Positions 9,908-18,397 of a DNA stretch of 22,200 nucleotides are shown piece by piece; position 1 is the first letter of the stretch; the number at the start of each line of letters is the position of its first letter. A model generated the notes under the pieces. That model had not been told where the DNA came from. It worked only from the letters and a program-made list of their open reading frames with translations, and did not search any database. The translations under genes and the position numbers were made by a program. This DNA comes from a virus: IMG/VR virus record IMGVR_UViG_2029527005_000007, positions 74,046-96,245 of that record, one strand, 5' to 3'.

Positions 9908-9963
9908 TAACTACTACTCCTACCCTCGCGGGTAGGAGTAGTATTATATATCTTTTTTTTTAT
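9908..9963. terminator. Terminator between convergent genes
   Basis: 14-bp stem TACTACTCCTACCC-TCGC-GGGTAGGAGTAGTA (9912-9943) with a T run on the + strand. Confidence 0.85.
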
Positions 9964-10371: not shown

Positions 10372-12477
10372 ATGAAAAAGCCCAATCTCAAGTTGAGCAA
10401 GATCAATCAGATGCATCCTGATTTGATCGGCGTCAACACCAACCTCAACATCATGCCATATGGTGACTCAGCGTCACGTCTCTATATGGAAGGGAACATG
10501 GTGCCGAAGTCGGTTGTGGTAAGCGGTAACAGTGAACGTTTGATTACAACGGGGTTTGAAAAACAATACGGCGATACAGCACGTTCGATTCGCTGTCCGT
10601 CTGATATGACCGTAGAAGAAGTGTTCTACGTTCAGTCAACTCGCGGTGACGGTATTCTCACCGACGGCTGGAAAGAGATCTTTGTGATCTTTAAGAACGA
10701 AGACAAGAACTATTTCGACATTCTGGTTCTTCCTCGATTCCACACACAAAATACTTACGTTGGCTTTGAGTATGTCTACGACAAAGAGATGATGCGTCGC
10801 TTGAAGAAAGATGCGCCATTCTCTAAAGGTGAAGAGTTCGCCCGCTCACCGCGCGTACGCTCCAGCGGAGAGTGGAACTTCGCAACTGAAACCATCGTCT
10901 GTGCTATGTCCAGTCACGCTACCGAAGAGGACGGCATTCGCATCACCGACCGCTATGCTCGTGAAAAACTGCGCTGCATGTTTAAACATGAACGTGGCTT
11001 TGAGTATAACGAAACAGACTGGATTCCTCTGAACCTTTATGGAACAGAAGACAACCCACGTCCGTTTGCTCGCCCAGGCGAAACCATTCGCGAAGACGGC
11101 ATTGTTATGGGCTTCCGTCGCCGCGCTGGTTGTAACCCGCTGATCTCTTTGACTAAGAAAGGTCTGATGCAGCCGGACTACCTGTTTGACAAACTGTTCT
11201 ATGCACCACCAAGCTCGGTGATGATGGACGTGATTGTTGAAGGCGAAAAGATCAAAGACCGTTCCCATAACCGCAGCACTGAGCAGATCCCTCAACAGCA
11301 CAGTGAAGCGATGCGTGAATTTGAAGCCATGCAGAATGCCTTCTACGTCGAAGTCATTAACTGGTATGAGCGTCTGATCGTGCGCATGGGTGGTCAGGAA
11401 CCTGAGATCAGTTTTGAACTCGATCGTTTTGTGCGTGACGCCTACGGTAAGCACACCAAACGTAACGGTATCATCAACAACCTGGGCTACTCGTACAAGA
11501 ACATTCGTCAGAAAGACTGGAAGATCACCATCCGTCTGAAAGAAGAAGTGTCGGGTCGCGTTAAGTTTAAGATGGCAGGTACCAACGGGGACAAAGGTGT
11601 TGCAGTTGATATGATTCCGTGGCAGGACGCACCTCACTATGAGGACGGCACCTACGCCGACATCATTATTAACAACACACCGGCATTCCGTCGCCAGATC
11701 ATGACCATGCTGGCCGAAGCCACCATCAACTTCATTAACCTGCAGGTTCATAAGGAAGTGATCGCACTGCGTAATGAAGGTAAGTACAAAGAAGCGTACG
11801 ATCGGGTATTCATGTTCTATGAAACAGGGTTCCCGGAGTTCGCTGAAATCGTGAAGAACGTCATGGTAACGGAAGAAGATCGTAATGAGCATGTGGATTA
11901 TATCTGCAAGCACAACATCTCGGTTCATCTCCGTTCCGATGCGAAGGTCTACGGTATTAACATTATCCGTGAACTTCGTAAGGTGTTCAAACACAAACCG
12001 CAGAAAGTGAAATTCCGTGACGCCTTTGGCGAAATGGTGGAGTCACATTATCCGATCTTACTGACCAGCATGTACTATATGTTGTTGGATAAGTTCGGTG
12101 CAGATGACAGTTCTCAGTCTTTCCCGAAAGCCAACCCATTTGGTTTACCGGCGTCGAACAGCCAAGGTGACAAACACACCAACTGGTATATCGACAAAGG
12201 CAGCCGTAACATCGGTGAGTCAGAAACTCGCTGGGAAACGGCACACAACGGTACAAAAGAAAACATCAAACAGTTAGCGCTGGCGAACAGTGACATCGTT
12301 CGTACCAACGCCATCAAGCGCATTATTCGTGCTGATGATCCGTTTGAAATCGATTGCATCGTGACCGATGAGGAGATCGCCACTAACCGTGCGGTGATCA
12401 TGGGATCAGAACTGCTCAGTGACTCTGGGTATATCTTGCGTGCAGAAAAGCCTGAAGACAGGGACAATGAATTATGA
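10372..12477 (+). CDS. Non-virion RNA polymerase beta subunit, C-terminal part (phiKZ gp71-73-like)
   Basis: RpoB motifs: DSASRLYMEGNM (D..RalMg.NM), HATEEDGI (N.EDai), KMAGTNGDKGV (K...RhG.KGv), DIIIN and RNIGESE (R.GEME); RBS GAGGA. Confidence 0.92.
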   Translation: MKKPNLKLSKINQMHPDLIGVNTNLNIMPYGDSASRLYMEGNMVPKSVVVSGNSERLITTGFEKQYGDTARSIRCPSDMTVEEVFYVQSTRGDGILTDGWKEIFVIFKNEDKNYFDILVLPRFHTQNTYVGFEYVYDKEMMRRLKKDAPFSKGEEFARSPRVRSSGEWNFATETIVCAMSSHATEEDGIRITDRYAREKLRCMFKHERGFEYNETDWIPLNLYGTEDNPRPFARPGETIREDGIVMGFRRRAGCNPLISLTKKGLMQPDYLFDKLFYAPPSSVMMDVIVEGEKIKDRSHNRSTEQIPQQHSEAMREFEAMQNAFYVEVINWYERLIVRMGGQEPEISFELDRFVRDAYGKHTKRNGIINNLGYSYKNIRQKDWKITIRLKEEVSGRVKFKMAGTNGDKGVAVDMIPWQDAPHYEDGTYADIIINNTPAFRRQIMTMLAEATINFINLQVHKEVIALRNEGKYKEAYDRVFMFYETGFPEFAEIVKNVMVTEEDRNEHVDYICKHNISVHLRSDAKVYGINIIRELRKVFKHKPQKVKFRDAFGEMVESHYPILLTSMYYMLLDKFGADDSSQSFPKANPFGLPASNSQGDKHTNWYIDKGSRNIGESETRWETAHNGTKENIKQLALANSDIVRTNAIKRIIRADDPFEIDCIVTDEEIATNRAVIMGSELLSDSGYILRAEKPEDRDNEL

Positions 12478-14483
12478 TTAAGATCGGTTTACGTGAATTT
12501 GCTAATTTACCGGAAACCACTGTGTTGCGATGGCTCGGGTTCTATCGTCTGGTTGAAGTCACTGACGATGCAGGCGAAACCCTGATTACCGATACGCAAT
12601 CCCTGTTAGTAACCTGGCAGGGGATGATTGTTCACCGCAACTATAACTCATTCCCGTACAGCAACAAGGAAGTTGCGCGCATCTATATTCGGGATCAGGA
12701 ATTGGAGGTGTGTGAAGACAAACTGTTAGCACGACCGCTGAACCAGTTCCTGCCGATTGTGATGCGGGACATGAAAGACCCGGTGGAAGCAGACGGTATC
12801 AAAATGATGATTCACGTCTGGCAAGCCAAACTGAATAACCTCTTAACGGCGATGACTGAACGGTTTGCTATTTCCGTGACGTCAGATGACCTGATTGAGG
12901 TAATGGAAGATCCAGGCATCGTTGATATCAAAACGCGTGTGCTCAACGGCACGATTACCATCGACGAAGGTGAAGCAGAGTTCATCACCTACATGGCGAC
13001 GTCACCGACGTTAAGCAATGCCATGTTGCCACTTCTGTGTCGTACTGGCGGTACTAGCTACAACCAGGCGTATCAGTCTATCGTAGTACGCGGTGCGGTG
13101 TTCGACCTGGACAACAGCATCTTCCCGAACCCTATCATGGATTCGTATGCGGAAGGTGTCGTTAACCTGGCGGACTCACTGGCTGAGAAGAACGGTGCTG
13201 GTAAAGCACTGATCACCTCAGGCAAGGCACTGCAAGGCGCTGAGTGGTTCCACCGTAAGAACCAGCTGCATGCAGCGGTAGTACGCGGTGTGGATCACTT
13301 CACAGACTGTAATACAGATCTTCCGGTTCCGCTTAAGATCAAATCCAAAGAGTTCCTGCACGCCTGCTTTGGCAAGTATGCTGTTCAGGAAGATGGCTCT
13401 CTGGAACTGATCGATGCAGCTTACGCGAAAACAGTGGAAGTGGGTGACACCATTCATATCCGCTCAATCCCGTACTGTACAACAAAAGATGCAGCCATGC
13501 CGTGCGGTTGTTGTGTGGGTCAGATGAAACATGCTTATCCGTACAACACCATGATGGGGATGGATTGTAATATTGGTATTTACTCTGCGACCGCGGTGTG
13601 TCGCCCAATCGGCCAGGGAATGCTGAGTATCAAGCACTTCCTGCGCAATACGGTTGCCACGCCGTTTGTTGTCCGTAGTCAGGACAAAGACGCCATCAGA
13701 ACTAACGGTGATGATATTTTCTTACTGAAAGATCTCTGTATGGAAGGAACAAAACTAATTGTGAGTTCCGCGGTTACCAAAGAGCTGACTGACATCCGTT
13801 CGCTGGATAATCTTGATGATGTTACAGTAGACAAGCTGTCCTATTTTGATGAAGCCAGCCTCTCCTATTTAGAAGAGGACATCATGATTGGCGGCAAGAC
13901 ACTGTATCAGCGTTCGGTGAAAACCTCGATACCAAGTCGTAGTGCTCGCATGTCAAAAGACCTGTTAGAGTTCATCTTCGACAATGGTTGGGAAGTGATT
14001 GACAAGAAGTTCATCGCTATTGATTTGAGTACCTGGCATCACGAGCAGCCGCTGTTTACGCTGCCGTATACTCAGGAAGATATGGACATCTACCGTCGTG
14101 AAGTGGAAAGCTTTATGGCGCACTCTAAACGTAATAATCAGTGGAAAGAACAGGAAGTCACCCCGGCGCGGTTTGGTGAAGTGTTGGTGGAAATGTGGGA
14201 GATGTTGAACCACAAATTCAAAGGCATCAACATTCTGCACTGCGAAGTGCTGTTGTACGCTGTAATGGGTAAGAATCCCAAAAACGGATACTATGGGCTG
14301 GTAAATGGGCACGCTCCACGTTATTTCGTGAGCTTCCAGAACGCCATTTGGAACCGAGGCTTCGGCACACTGATGATCTACGATCACCAGCAAAACGTGT
14401 TGAACAACTTCAGTTCATTCTTAGTCAAAGAGCGTCAACCATCACCTTTCGAGGCTTATTGGCATTATGGTCGTAGAGAATAA
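12474..14483 (+). CDS. Non-virion RNA polymerase beta' subunit, C-terminal part (phiKZ gp74-like)
   Basis: RpoC motifs: RG...NPIMDSYAEGV, bridge-helix-like GKALQGAEWFHRK, Zn site DCNT...RSIPYC...CGCCVG, trigger-loop-like NIGIYSATAVCRPIGQGMLSIKH; ATGA overlap. Confidence 0.92.
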   Translation: MIKIGLREFANLPETTVLRWLGFYRLVEVTDDAGETLITDTQSLLVTWQGMIVHRNYNSFPYSNKEVARIYIRDQELEVCEDKLLARPLNQFLPIVMRDMKDPVEADGIKMMIHVWQAKLNNLLTAMTERFAISVTSDDLIEVMEDPGIVDIKTRVLNGTITIDEGEAEFITYMATSPTLSNAMLPLLCRTGGTSYNQAYQSIVVRGAVFDLDNSIFPNPIMDSYAEGVVNLADSLAEKNGAGKALITSGKALQGAEWFHRKNQLHAAVVRGVDHFTDCNTDLPVPLKIKSKEFLHACFGKYAVQEDGSLELIDAAYAKTVEVGDTIHIRSIPYCTTKDAAMPCGCCVGQMKHAYPYNTMMGMDCNIGIYSATAVCRPIGQGMLSIKHFLRNTVATPFVVRSQDKDAIRTNGDDIFLLKDLCMEGTKLIVSSAVTKELTDIRSLDNLDDVTVDKLSYFDEASLSYLEEDIMIGGKTLYQRSVKTSIPSRSARMSKDLLEFIFDNGWEVIDKKFIAIDLSTWHHEQPLFTLPYTQEDMDIYRREVESFMAHSKRNNQWKEQEVTPARFGEVLVEMWEMLNHKFKGINILHCEVLLYAVMGKNPKNGYYGLVNGHAPRYFVSFQNAIWNRGFGTLMIYDHQQNVLNNFSSFLVKERQPSPFEAYWHYGRRE

Positions 14484-14498: not shown

Positions 14499-16043
14499 AT
14501 GCGACATACGTGTGTTATATCCGTGGCCAACAACTACCTCAGGGTGTACGATTACGCTGAGGAATTTGTCGATCGAGTATTAAAGCCGTTTTGTCGCATG
14601 TACTTGTCTAAAACGGGGATGGTGCCAGCAAAGCATAATCCCCGTCTTCAGGTCATGGCGGTTACACATCGCTTCATGCGGTTCAACCACGACCAGTCGG
14701 AAATTCGATTCACAAGTAGTTTGTTGGAAGAACTTAAAACTTTTATTGGTAGTCGAGGTTACGCACCCAAACGAATTCTTCAGGTCGTAGAACCTGAAAT
14801 TATTCCTATGCCCGCGACTATTAATTTCAAACCGGGAATAGGGACTCCGAAGGATGACCAGCTGGATTGGCTGAAGTACATCATGGAACCGGGTCCGCTT
14901 AAATTAAACAACGCCGCGACAGGGGTAGGGAAAACCTTTATGTCCATCTGGACTGCAGTTCAACTGCAGCAACGCGTTGTGATTATCGCTAACGCCCGAT
15001 TCTTGCCAGTGTGGAAGGTTGAGTGTGGTAACCTGTTAGACATAGCACCGGAAGATTATGTTGAAACAGATGTGGGTGGTTTGGATAACTTCTTGGCAGC
15101 CTTGAAGAAAGGCGTGGTGAATCCCAAGATCGTGGTGATTAGTTTGACCAAGATCGACATCATGCTCAAGAAGTCCAAAGCTGACCCGTTGGCACCAGAC
15201 CTCGATGATTTCTATCGTGAGTATCGTCCTGGCTTACGCGTGTATGACGAAGCCCACGAATCGATTCATCAGCTGTACCTGTCTATGATGTTTGGGAACA
15301 TTCGCAAAACCATTGCTAACACCGCAACGGTCAGAGCAGAAGACCCGATGACCAACAAGATCTATGGTTATCTGTATCCCAAAGAGTGTCGCCTGAAAGA
15401 AACGGAGTATTCAGCGCACATGCACGTCAAGGCACTGTTCTATCGCATTGACACCAGCAAGCACCGTATACGTTCCATGGCGCGTGGCGTGTACAACGAC
15501 ACGGTGTTTGAGGCTTCGGTAATGGATAACCACAAGCTTCAACCCCAGTATATCGAAATGATGTATAAGTTCTTTGATGACTATTATTATCATCGTCGTC
15601 GGCCGGGTACCAAGTGTCTGTTCTTCTTTACTAAGGTAGAGACGTGCAAGATCATGGTGGCTGCGCTGTTGAAACGTTATCCTGACCTGGATGCGATTTC
15701 ATTTACAGGGGAGCAGGGTGGTAAGGCAGAAACCAAAGATGAATATCGCAAGCACGAAGTGGTGTTTTCTACACCGGGTTCGTGCGGTACCGGTAAAGAC
15801 ATTCCAGGGCTGATTACCTGTATCAGCTTCCACAACGTGAAGTCACTACAGCGTAACTACCAGATGCGCGGGCGTATTCGTCCGATTAAGCAGACGGAAC
15901 ATCCAGACCTGGAACGCATCTATGGCTACACCGTGTGCGTGAACGAAAAGAAACACAAAGAGTACCACAAGTACCGGAAAGAGCTCTTTGAGGAATCTTC
16001 CTTGAGTTACCAGAGTGTCGATTCGGGCTTTACCTTAGCGTAG
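14499..16043 (+). CDS. Superfamily 2 DEAH helicase (UvsW/XPB-like; phiKZ gp75 position)
   Basis: Walker A AATGVGKT, DEAH, motif III TAT, motif V GTGKDIPGL, motif VI QMRGRIR; RBS AGGAG. Confidence 0.92.
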   Translation: MRHTCVISVANNYLRVYDYAEEFVDRVLKPFCRMYLSKTGMVPAKHNPRLQVMAVTHRFMRFNHDQSEIRFTSSLLEELKTFIGSRGYAPKRILQVVEPEIIPMPATINFKPGIGTPKDDQLDWLKYIMEPGPLKLNNAATGVGKTFMSIWTAVQLQQRVVIIANARFLPVWKVECGNLLDIAPEDYVETDVGGLDNFLAALKKGVVNPKIVVISLTKIDIMLKKSKADPLAPDLDDFYREYRPGLRVYDEAHESIHQLYLSMMFGNIRKTIANTATVRAEDPMTNKIYGYLYPKECRLKETEYSAHMHVKALFYRIDTSKHRIRSMARGVYNDTVFEASVMDNHKLQPQYIEMMYKFFDDYYYHRRRPGTKCLFFFTKVETCKIMVAALLKRYPDLDAISFTGEQGGKAETKDEYRKHEVVFSTPGSCGTGKDIPGLITCISFHNVKSLQRNYQMRGRIRPIKQTEHPDLERIYGYTVCVNEKKHKEYHKYRKELFEESSLSYQSVDSGFTLA

Positions 16044-16056
16044 TTTATCACTAATC

Positions 16057-16082
16057 GGAGTAAGGGGGAAACCTCTTACTCT
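16057..16082 (+). other. GAAA-tetraloop hairpin without U-tract
   Basis: GGAGTAAGGGG-GAAA-CCTCTTACTCT directly before the RBS of the next gene. Confidence 0.6.
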
Positions 16083-16096
16083 CTACGGGAGTATGT

Positions 16097-16771
16097 ATGT
16101 CAGAACAATTTTCGCAACAAGTTATGGACCAGATCAAAACCTTTATCAACGAGCGCGGTTTGAAGACTGGCGTGCCGTCGGACATTGCTCACTACATCGC
16201 CGAGCAGGTGCCGGCTGGCCAGGTCCGTATCCAGGATGAAAGTTGGGGTGAACCTGACAAGTGGATCTACCGCGGCCCGGTAGACGCTGAGAGCGACGAC
16301 GTGCTCTGCTATGGCTGGCGGGTCATGCAGAAGGGCAAAGAGTCTGAGCGCTATGAACGTGACCTGCACGATATGATCGGACCACGTTGGACGGTGGAAA
16401 TCCTGTCTGCTGAAGACAACCTCAACTTGCCGAAAACCAAACCGGGTAAAGAAACCAAATCAGAGCGGGAATCTCACGAGGCCCTCGAGCAAACCTTTAC
16501 TCCGTCTGATGACGTTGGTACCAAGATCGTTGACCAAACTTACGGCCAGGTCAACGACGCTATCTTTGCCGCTATGCCGGGTACACTGGCTATTCGCTGT
16601 GAAGACTGGAACAACGCCAACGCCTGGGTGCTGTTGGAAGAAGTTAAGGTCAAAGAAGAAAGCATGCAGGTATTGACTATTAACTACAGCAACGGTGTGA
16701 AAATGCCGTGGCATCCGTCTATGCTGGATCTCTCCAGCAAGAACTGGACCAGCAAAAGTCCGTTAGAGTAA
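16097..16771 (+). CDS. DUF2829/Tad2-like protein, apparently two tandem domains
   Basis: C-terminal AIRCEDWNN..WVLL...MPWHPSMLDLSSKNW matches the DUF2829 signature R.gWn...PW.pS..Dl.a.dW. The N-terminal half has a degenerate copy. Confidence 0.7.
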   Translation: MSEQFSQQVMDQIKTFINERGLKTGVPSDIAHYIAEQVPAGQVRIQDESWGEPDKWIYRGPVDAESDDVLCYGWRVMQKGKESERYERDLHDMIGPRWTVEILSAEDNLNLPKTKPGKETKSERESHEALEQTFTPSDDVGTKIVDQTYGQVNDAIFAAMPGTLAIRCEDWNNANAWVLLEEVKVKEESMQVLTINYSNGVKMPWHPSMLDLSSKNWTSKSPLE

Positions 16772-16777
16772 GACGTC

Positions 16778-16815
16778 AGGGGTGTTTTCGGACACCCCTT
16801 TCTTCATTACTTTTT
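16778..16815 (+). terminator. Intrinsic terminator with UUCG loop
   Basis: AGGGGTGTT-TTCG-GACACCCCT (16778-16799) followed by a T-rich tract. Confidence 0.85.
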
Positions 16816-16829
16816 AATCCTATATTACC
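16812..16829 (+). promoter_or_regulatory. Putative phage early promoter (copy 4 of 4)
   Basis: TTTTAATCCTATATTACC contains TATATTAC (16821-16828), the reported phiKZ early promoter core. Confidence 0.7.
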
Positions 16830-16860
16830 TATGCATAACCTAGTCAATAATGGAGTCACC

Positions 16861-17295
16861 ATGTCTACCCTTAGTCGCTTGTTGAAGAACCGTTATAAAA
16901 AGTATTACTTGGACCTGGCCGGCATCAATGCCAGCGTTGTTCGTATGATCACCCCCATGATTCCCAATATGGAGAAGAAGGGTGAGTTCAAAGATGGCTG
17001 GACGCGAAGCTACCCTAACCTGAACCTGGAGATCGACCACAACCCCTGTGGTTATCGTCTGGACCTGCGTAAAACCGGCGAGAAGACCTACAGCTACCGT
17101 TTACGCATTACCTTTAAGAAAGACGCACCTTTCTTCTGGGGAAGTCCACAACGCCGTCAGGACCTCACTACGCTAGTGAATCAAGAGTATAAAGAACACA
17201 AGCGTATGTTCGGCTTTTCACACAAAACCAACATCGTGACGCTGATGCAGCGCTACATCACTTTCGCAATCGAAGGCGAAATAAAACTCGACTGA
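16861..17295 (+). CDS. Basic hypothetical protein (144 aa)
   Basis: GGAG precedes ATG 16861; the longer 16708 start crosses the terminator and promoter. K/R/Y-rich. Confidence 0.8.
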   Translation: MSTLSRLLKNRYKKYYLDLAGINASVVRMITPMIPNMEKKGEFKDGWTRSYPNLNLEIDHNPCGYRLDLRKTGEKTYSYRLRITFKKDAPFFWGSPQRRQDLTTLVNQEYKEHKRMFGFSHKTNIVTLMQRYITFAIEGEIKLD

Positions 17296-17322
17296 CAATT
17301 CAGTAGTCTATTAGGAGTACAT

Positions 17323-17727
17323 ATGAAACAGACTATTGATCTGATCAAAATCCCACCTGGCTATACGTCTGACATTCACGAGTTCTGTTCACCAGTACTT
17401 GAAGTGGCAATGTTGCGCGGTGAAAAGGCGGGTACGTTCGATGACGATTTCTTCTATGAAGTATTGGAAACGCATCTGGCGGAAAATGAACAACGCATCA
17501 TTCTGCATAACGCGCACCGTTTTCTGGAGCAAAAACTTCATTTCATGGATCGTGAGTTCGAGCCCTTCTACGAAAAGGAGTTTGAAATCGGTTGCAGACA
17601 CTTCATACGAGACTTTCTCCACATCAATCAACTTCATACCGTTAGAGGGTTAAAGAGCGACGTATGGAAGATAAGCATAAAGCCGCTGCCCGGCAATATG
17701 TGGCAGTTAACGACGGTTGTCGGATAA
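17323..17727 (+). CDS. Hypothetical protein (134 aa)
   Basis: RBS AGGAG; operon context. Confidence 0.85.
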   Translation: MKQTIDLIKIPPGYTSDIHEFCSPVLEVAMLRGEKAGTFDDDFFYEVLETHLAENEQRIILHNAHRFLEQKLHFMDREFEPFYEKEFEIGCRHFIRDFLHINQLHTVRGLKSDVWKISIKPLPGNMWQLTTVVG

Positions 17728-18083
17728 GCCAAACTTTTACCGTCAAATATGGGTTTCCGCCTGAGCTCAACGAAGAGCAGTTGGAAGTGCTAACCACCAT
17801 GGTGTTGAATCGTATAGATTCTATAGTGACACACACTTCCTTTAACCGTGACACGTTAGCTCTGGTACACGCTCACATGACTCCCAGTCGCTGGGACGAA
17901 GAGAACGGTGGTACTGAAAACTTTTACCGCCGCGAAGCCATGATGATCGACGAAATGTTCAGTGACGTCGAGGATGATCGCGCGTATCGTTCTACTTTAG
18001 GAGATCTTGCCCGATGTCAATGCACGACGTTCAGTGTACAACTGATAACCAACAATCTGATATTTCTGGAGCTCCGGTTCTAG
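17664..18083 (+). CDS. Hypothetical protein, possible distant paralog of 17323-17727
   Basis: Fills the operon gap. Start uncertain (ATG 17664 or GTG 17700); both overlap the upstream gene. Confidence 0.7.
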   Translation: MEDKHKAAARQYVAVNDGCRISQTFTVKYGFPPELNEEQLEVLTTMVLNRIDSIVTHTSFNRDTLALVHAHMTPSRWDEENGGTENFYRREAMMIDEMFSDVEDDRAYRSTLGDLARCQCTTFSVQLITNNLIFLELRF

Positions 18084-18094
18084 GCGAAACCGTA

Positions 18095-18397
18095 ATGAAC
18101 ATGATGTTACAGATGTACCATCGTGCCAAGAAAGAGTTTTTCTTCCCTACCAGTCTGAAAACCAAAGAAGTTAAAACGGTTGAAGGCATCGCCGGCGGCG
18201 CCAAGATCGTGTTAACGCTCTGGGCAGGTCGCAGCGCGCGTCACGGCATGGAAGAGATGTGCTGTCGTATTAAAGTCACCCCTGAGATCGCTTGGGATGG
18301 CACTAACTTCGAGAAAGACTTCTTGCTGCATTCGCTGGCGCTGTTCAGTGACATGACTGTGAAGAGCGATCGCGACGGCATTTACTACGTTTGGTAA
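18095..18397 (+). CDS. Hypothetical protein (~100 aa)
   Basis: ATG 18095 follows the upstream stop at 18083; ends just before a terminator. Confidence 0.7.
   Translation: MNMMLQMYHRAKKEFFFPTSLKTKEVKTVEGIAGGAKIVLTLWAGRSARHGMEEMCCRIKVTPEIAWDGTNFEKDFLLHSLALFSDMTVKSDRDGIYYVW

Follow-up and report, generated by a model that had tools for sequence, protein, structure and literature searches.

The window, by which we mean the whole stretch of 22,200 nt that was analysed, forms the end (22 kb) of an IMG/VR record of 96 kb whose completeness was estimated by CheckV at 42%. It contains a gene for a 224-aa protein, hereafter called P0001, which is a member of the Tad2 (DUF2829, PF11195) family and has an unusual architecture, a single chain in which a flexible linker connects two domains of the Tad2 fold. 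The genes and features of the locus are listed below, with the evidence for the parts of the gene given in parentheses.

9912-9943, both strands: strong terminator-like hairpin, a perfect 14-bp palindrome
10372-12477, + strand: split RNA polymerase (RNAP) beta-type subunit, phrog_3295
12474-14483, + strand: split RNAP beta-type subunit, phrog_3015
14499-16043, + strand: helicase, phrog_16
16057-16082, + strand: stable 11-bp hairpin, GAAA loop, U-tail absent, in the gap that separates the gene from the stop codon of the helicase
16087-16091, + strand: ribosome-binding site GGGAG, 5 nt 5' of the ATG (read from the sequence)
16097-16771, + strand: coding sequence of the two-domain Tad2-like protein P0001, 224 aa (ORF call)
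16097-16156, + strand: N-terminal extension, aa 1-20, with a helix at aa 7-19, directly preceding 16157 (AF2 model, alignment)
16157-16402, + strand: N-domain, aa 21-102, a diverged Tad2 fold (hhalign, structure comparison, residue table)
16403-16519, + strand: disordered charged linker, aa 103-141 (pLDDT, alignment, composition)
16520-16759, + strand: C-domain, aa 142-221, a canonical Tad2-like domain (PF11195, structure comparison, Foldseek, residue mapping)
16778-16809, + strand: terminator-like hairpin of 9 bp (16778-16799) with a T-rich tail, 7 nt past the stop codon

Source phage and transcription of the gene

The RNAP subunit shares 55% identity with its counterpart in the Erwinia phages RisingSun and Joad and 52% with that of the Pseudomonas phage EL, and the contigs that carry relatives of the gene are 223-243 kb long; we therefore assign the source to the phiKZ-like jumbo phages, as an uncultured member. 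Judging from this kinship only, the phage would form a nucleus. A phiKZ chimallin query found no match in the 96-kb fragment, nor did it find one in RisingSun, so that this search is uninformative on nucleus formation.

The gene lies directly 3' of the helicase gene in every locus that carries the two-domain gene. RisingSun shares the SbcD...RNAP-helicase block, but there an unrelated gene of 144 aa comes after the helicase and the two-domain gene is missing from this slot; the two-domain gene is therefore an accessory insertion and not part of the core machinery. When the window phage is compared with the phage of a related locus (L007), the helicases are 82% identical, while identity drops to 30% for P0001, 29% for the next small gene (144 aa) and 48% for the small gene following that (134 aa). 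The gene heads a fast-evolving stretch, and rapid divergence is not unique to it. The small genes after the helicase (16861-18397 in the window, 1719-3274 in L007) are maybe a variable accessory region. As for the first of them, the listed ORF with a GTG start at 16708-17295 overlaps the 3' end of the Tad2-like gene and reads across the terminator; the downstream gene most likely starts at the ATG at 16861, which has a GGAG 6 nt upstream, giving a protein of 144 aa whose relatives have 144-146 aa. No family match was obtained for this 144-aa protein.

The gene is on the same strand as the RNAP-beta and helicase genes and begins 53 nt 3' of the helicase, and a GGAG or GAGG is preserved before the gene in its relatives. 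Upstream of this gene cluster, the hairpin at 9912-9943 stands between a 476-aa gene and a small minus-strand ORF preceding the RNAP operon. The first intergenic +-strand hairpin with a T-tail after it is the one at 16778-16799 (MFE -16.2 kcal/mol, z -3.8), and a hairpin is found at the equivalent place after the gene in three related loci (L002, L005 and L007); two weaker terminator matches, at 12600 and 15604, are inside coding sequence. This arrangement agrees with transcription of the gene together with the RNAP-helicase genes. A preliminary description of the DNA, made from its letters, had suggested such co-transcription, and the common strand, the gap of 53 nt and the terminator after the gene speak for it, but the stable hairpin that intervenes between the helicase and the gene complicates the picture. 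That hairpin (16057-16082; MFE -17.5 kcal/mol, z -3.0) has counterparts at the equivalent position in two distant relatives, L007 with -16.9 kcal/mol and L008 with -19.2 kcal/mol, where the sequence differs and shows compensatory changes. It may attenuate the transcript, serve in its processing or make it more stable, and because a stable and conserved hairpin precedes the gene, expression of the gene may not simply track that of the operon.

Two Tad2-fold domains in one chain

The C-domain belongs to the Tad2 family by sequence. Pfam PF11195 (Tad2-like) matched aa 161-218 of P0001 with 26.2 bits, which is barely above the gathering cut-off of 25 bits; the score was 26.9 bits when the C-domain was scanned alone and 26.7 bits in the whole-genome scan. 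The same family was matched on the C-domain of four of the five full-length homologues with 22-31 bits, two of these four exceeding the cut-off, while the fifth homologue, P0005, had no Pfam match; the single-domain relatives scored 18-33 bits. Family membership based on sequence holds for the C-domain only. Our main AF2 model, built with an input of 10 sequences, has a mean pLDDT of 76.9, with 84-90 in both domains. Its C-domain (aa 145-221) matched ten Tad2 entries, which include SPO1 Tad2, ModTad2, HgmTad2/AcrIIA7 and SptTad2, with Z of 9.6-10.7 and an rmsd of about 2.0 Å over 71-75 residues, as compared with Z 4.6 for the next-best fold, and Foldseek likewise matched the C-domain to Tad2 (E 2.9e-4, probability 1.0).

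The N-domain is much more diverged. Scanning each half against DUF2829, which the preliminary description had put forward as a check, gave the expected match for the C-domain but none for the N-domain at E up to 10, and the N-domain had no match in PHROGs or NCBIfam either. Its relation to the C-domain becomes visible as the compared profiles grow. BLASTP of one half of P0001 against the other gave E 0.021, and hhalign with four sequences per profile gave E 0.0024. With larger profiles, to which two distant homologues and three single-domain relatives were added (six N-domain against nine C-domain sequences), hhalign returned a score of 38.2, E 1.6e-6 and a probability of 90% in an alignment that is colinear over 63 columns, whereas 100 column-shuffled C-profiles used as controls reached a maximum score of 16.5 and reversed profiles scored 12.7-13.4. 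Even plain BLASTP connects the N-domain of P0001 with the C-domain of P0005 (E 0.004). Six N-domains, six C-domains and four single-domain proteins could be aligned by MAFFT over their full length, and the sole invariant column among these 16 domain sequences is that of W50/W171. Against the single-domain relatives alone, the N-profile gave a weak match in the same register (E 0.021); the N-domain is therefore nearest to its own partner domain. These sequence comparisons fit an origin by internal duplication, or by fusion of a neighbouring paralogue, in the ancestor of the clade.

For the comparison of the domains we preferred an alignment of six sequences (A4), which is nearly gap-free and agrees with both the hhalign result and the 16-domain alignment. 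A MAFFT alignment of ten sequences, which placed the second half of the N-domains of P0005 and P0006 differently, was set aside in its favour.

The predicted structures point in the same direction. In the main AF2 model the N-domain consists of E21-27, H28-37, E43-47, E55-62, E71-78, H90-92 and E97-102, and the C-domain of E142-147, H149-158, E165-168, E177-185, E188-196, E202-204, H209-213 and E217-221 (E, strand; H, helix), so that both follow the order beta-alpha-beta-beta-beta-(beta)-alpha-beta. A first AF2 model, made from 4 close sequences, had a mean pLDDT of 54 and left the C-domain unmodelled, and was used for the N-domain only; the six best PDB matches of this N-domain were all Tad2, with Z of 5.8-6.3 and an rmsd of 3.0-3.7 Å over 72-74 residues. 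In a search independent of Foldseek, only two of 48,161 representative PDB chains had Z >= 5, and both are Tad2 proteins, ModTad2 (5.9) and HgmTad2 (5.7), aligned to aa 25-102. Thus both halves have the Tad2 fold in the models (helix alpha1 and then an antiparallel sheet of five strands, the last of which is preceded by a short helix), the N-domain with Z values that are moderate and come from a predicted model but agree with the sequence evidence.

The preliminary description had proposed two tandem Tad2-like domains in one chain, and the Pfam match of the C-domain together with the hhalign result and fold of the N-domain bear this out; in particular, its proposal that the N-terminal half would adopt the Tad2 fold is upheld by the structure searches. 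The DUF2829 signature that it saw in the C-terminal part is real, but the bounds of the repeats, given as aa ~25-101 and ~148-218, had to be mended to aa 21-102 and 142-221. A charged linker is likewise present, but it has about 39 aa (103-141) and not ~45. This linker contains 14 charged residues, has a pLDDT below 50 at aa 114-132 in the AF2 model, and differs in both length and sequence among the homologues in the six-sequence alignment. The pTM of the AF2 monomer model is 0.46, that is, confident packing of the two domains against each other is not predicted. In front of the N-domain, the extension has invariant columns at M1, S2, F5 and I13, and its conserved helix (aa 7-19) is without a counterpart in single-domain Tad2 according to the AF2 model.

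P0001 has five full-length homologues with 28-59% identity, the closest pair being 59% identical. All of the six two-domain proteins come from uncultured phiKZ-like jumbo phages, and both domains are conserved in every one. An exhaustive profile search of 1.84 billion cluster representatives returned only three two-domain clusters, represented by P0001 with its close relatives, P0005 and P0006, and three single-domain relatives of the C-type; searches based on words and patterns added only P0002-P0004 and P0011. A stand-alone N-type protein was not found in a search that relied on shared words, and its absence is thus not proven. Looking for more two-domain relatives in IMG/VR and JGI contigs returned only the same clade, and megablast and tblastn against the phage collection gave no useful match. 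In profile searches of the PDB the best match was SPO1 Tad2 with E 1.1, while NCBIfam gave no match and PHROGs weak matches only.

Several jumbo phages already carry domains labelled Tad2-like in UniProt. Tad2 matches of ~200 aa in BFVD, with alignments of more than 200 columns, may include further tandems; the one that was checked, from Tetrasphaera phage TJE1, turned out to be single-domain. The TJE1 gene (L016:1087-1746), annotated as a 'Tad2-like domain-containing protein' of ~206 aa, looks like an over-extended ORF: its Tad2-like part starts at an internal Met and has about 89 aa, and the part upstream lies across an ORF of a different frame that is the more plausible one.

Ligand-contact residues and the candidate function

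SPO1 Tad2 holds gcADPR by means of W25, N26, W73, S76, T78 and D79 (10.1101/2023.05.01.538930), and HgmTad2 loses binding in its W21A/N22A and S90A/T92A/D93A mutants (PMC10680739). The C-domain of P0001 has the motif residues W171, N172/N173, Y197, N199-G200, W205, P207, S208, D211 and W217. According to the HMM alignment to SPO1 Tad2 and the domain alignment, a mapping that is predicted and does not come from a solved structure, the SPO1 contacts W25, N26, W73, S76 and D79 correspond to W171, N172, W205, S208 and D211 of the C-domain, and the sole contact lost is T78, the equivalent of which is L210.

We consider it moderately likely that P0001 is a Tad2-type immune-signal sponge, of which the C-type sites would bind an ADPR-derived Thoeris signal and which would have, in addition, a non-equivalent N-type site. 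In such a mechanism, cytoplasmic P0001 would sequester a nucleotide-derived immune signal, most likely of the Thoeris cADPR type and held by the C-domain sites, and this sequestration would shield the phiKZ-like jumbo phage from signalling-based abortive infection.

The preliminary description had called the two domains unlike, and indeed the mean identity between N-domains and C-domains is 15.6%; the single-domain relatives are on average 28.5% identical to the C-domains and 11% to the N-domains. At the positions equivalent to those of SPO1 Tad2, the N-domains of P0001, P0002, P0003, P0004, P0005 and P0006, in this order, have the following residues.

W25 equivalent: W in 6/6
N26 equivalent: G, G, D, G, A, V
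Position after N26: E, E, D, D, Y, E (all C-domains and all single-domain relatives have Asn here)
W73 equivalent: Y, Y, W, W, W, W
P75 equivalent: R, R, N, N, P, P
S76 equivalent: D, D, D, D, T, S
D79 equivalent: D, E, N, S, D, D

In P0001 the contact equivalents are W50, G51, Y86, D89 and D92, which depart from the ligand-contact set; its N-domain retains W50, Y86, D92 and W98 and is without the N-N, Y-x-N-G and P-S motifs. The Y-x-N-G turn is missing from the N-domains in general, and the P-[ST] of the second motif is gone in 4/6 of them, being kept only in P0005 and P0006, the most distant homologues, which read W-F-P-T-D-E-D and W-A-P-S-A-F-D. The aromatic walls of the pocket are thus preserved in the N-domain but its polar lining is not, and the domain is a site that was remodelled or else a scaffold. 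The N-domain may even bind nothing, because most of the polar ligand contacts of known Tad2 are absent from it.

If so, P0001 would be a sponge of single specificity, in which only the C-domain sites bind and the N-domain serves as a scaffold, for example for the oligomeric state or solubility of the protein. We think this rather unlikely. The substitutions at the N26 equivalent, the loss of the following Asn and of Y-x-N-G and the variation at the D79 equivalent are in its favour, as are the missing Pfam match and the faster divergence of the N-domain, which shows a mean identity of 37% among N-domains as compared with 48% among C-domains. On the other hand, W50 does not vary in any of the 16 domain sequences, the second aromatic residue of the pocket is always retained, the most distant homologues still have W-x-P-[ST]-x-x-D in the N-domain, and the N-domain as such is conserved in 6/6 homologues. 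That P0001 is not an immune-signal sponge at all, and that its Tad2 fold binds another nucleotide or metabolite or acts on the transcription or replication machinery encoded next to it, is improbable in our estimation: the fixed place after the RNAP-beta/beta'/helicase genes in every carrier and the marginal Pfam score would suit it, but the C-domain preserves, beyond the fold, the ligand-contact set of proven sponges, and the gene is absent from the RisingSun slot despite the same RNAP-helicase block.

Possible assemblies and comparison with known sponges

The Tad2 sponges known so far have a single domain, form homotetramers and vary in their ligands (PMC10680739; 10.1101/2025.08.24.671296), and the homologues bind these signals in pockets of two kinds between protomers (10.1101/2025.08.24.671296): non-dimeric pairs hold gcADPR between them, and the dimer takes up cyclic dinucleotides or cUMP (PMC10680739; 10.1101/2025.08.24.671296; 10.1101/2023.05.01.538930). 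Because Tad2 pockets form only between protomers, the P0001 chain must oligomerise, and for P0001 as a Tad2-type sponge two models can be considered. In model (a), two chains would form a pseudo-tetramer mimicking the Tad2 tetramer, in which one two-fold axis would be exact, with N/N and C/C pairs, and the other two axes would relate N-domains to C-domains. In model (b), four chains would build an N4 core and, apart from it, a C4 core, with the linkers as tethers, as modelled for Tad2-Acb4. Both models would lead to two kinds of site, not one. The long and variable linker and the pTM of the predicted monomer fit model (b) slightly better; model (a) is in keeping with an origin in which a domain that associates with itself was duplicated.

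A further possibility, to which we give a low probability, is that the duplication broke the symmetry of the sponge, so that the pseudo-tetramer would have either a canonical C/C pocket together with an N/N pocket that has been remodelled, or two pockets of hybrid N/C type for an asymmetric ligand. If this were true, one small protein could neutralise two different immune signals, and these may include signals of CBASS or type III CRISPR, which matter most to nucleus-forming phages.

The closest comparison is with SPO1 Tad2 (gp34.65; PDB 8SME/8SMF/8SMG, 8WJE), the founding Thoeris anti-defence 2 sponge. Its fold is common to both domains of P0001, with Z near 10 in the comparison with the C-domain and near 6 with the N-domain, and it has the W-N, W-x-P-S-x-x-D and terminal W motifs in common with the C-domain. 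The sequence identity between the two proteins is only 15-17%, however, and SPO1 Tad2 has a single domain of 89 aa and forms a homotetramer in which the two pockets are identical, whereas P0001 is a 224-aa chain with two unlike domains and an N-terminal helix. HgmTad2/AcrIIA7, SptTad2 and ModTad2 (PDB 8KBI-K, 8WJD, 9EIB, 8V3E), which are among the structural matches of the C-domain with Z 9.6-10.7, provide a precedent for one Tad2 assembly that accommodates ligands of two types in two types of pocket between protomers. Their second specificity is gained through an insertion or through a second interface of identical protomers, whereas P0001 would have come to its second type of domain by whole-domain duplication and divergence; the AF2 model of P0001 is without the beta2-beta5 insertion.

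Fusion of sponge domains via unmodelled linkers is an established route to the inhibition of more than one system, and the published fusions are Tad2-Acb4 of Pasteurella phage Pm86 and Tad2-PF21825 'Sequestin' (10.1101/2025.07.12.664507). Like P0001, these have two sponge-type domains per chain and a flexible linker, but their partner domains are of different families (PF13876 and PF21825), while the partner in P0001 is a Tad2 fold without a Pfam match. Tad2-like genes are already present in jumbo phages related to the source phage, an example being that of RisingSun gp7 (YP_009612751), which is encoded at another locus and is only remotely similar to P0001. This protein is annotated as 'putative thymidylate kinase' (L014:1541-1912) and is probably a single-domain Tad2-like protein, with 37.7 bits to Pfam Tad2-like; its gene adjoins the real thymidylate kinase gene. 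Neither Tad2-Tad2 tandem chains nor Tad2 proteins of Chimalliviridae came up in the literature that could be searched.

The known routes by which sponges broaden their range are insertions, second interfaces and fusion to other sponge families, and a natural Tad2-Tad2 tandem that pairs a canonical with a remodelled domain would be an additional route to a wider ligand range, by duplication and then divergence. The two domains could be mutated or expressed one at a time, which would make the protein a simple system for the evolution of sponge specificity. For the phage, signalling-based defences are among those that jumbo phages must still counter, and Tad1 is the only characterised jumbo-phage anti-defence protein according to a 2026 review (PMC13282480). 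The Tad1 of phiKZ, a characterised sponge of a nucleus-forming phage (PMC13282480), has a fold unrelated to Tad2, and the gene described here would add a candidate by which jumbo phages counter signalling-based defences.
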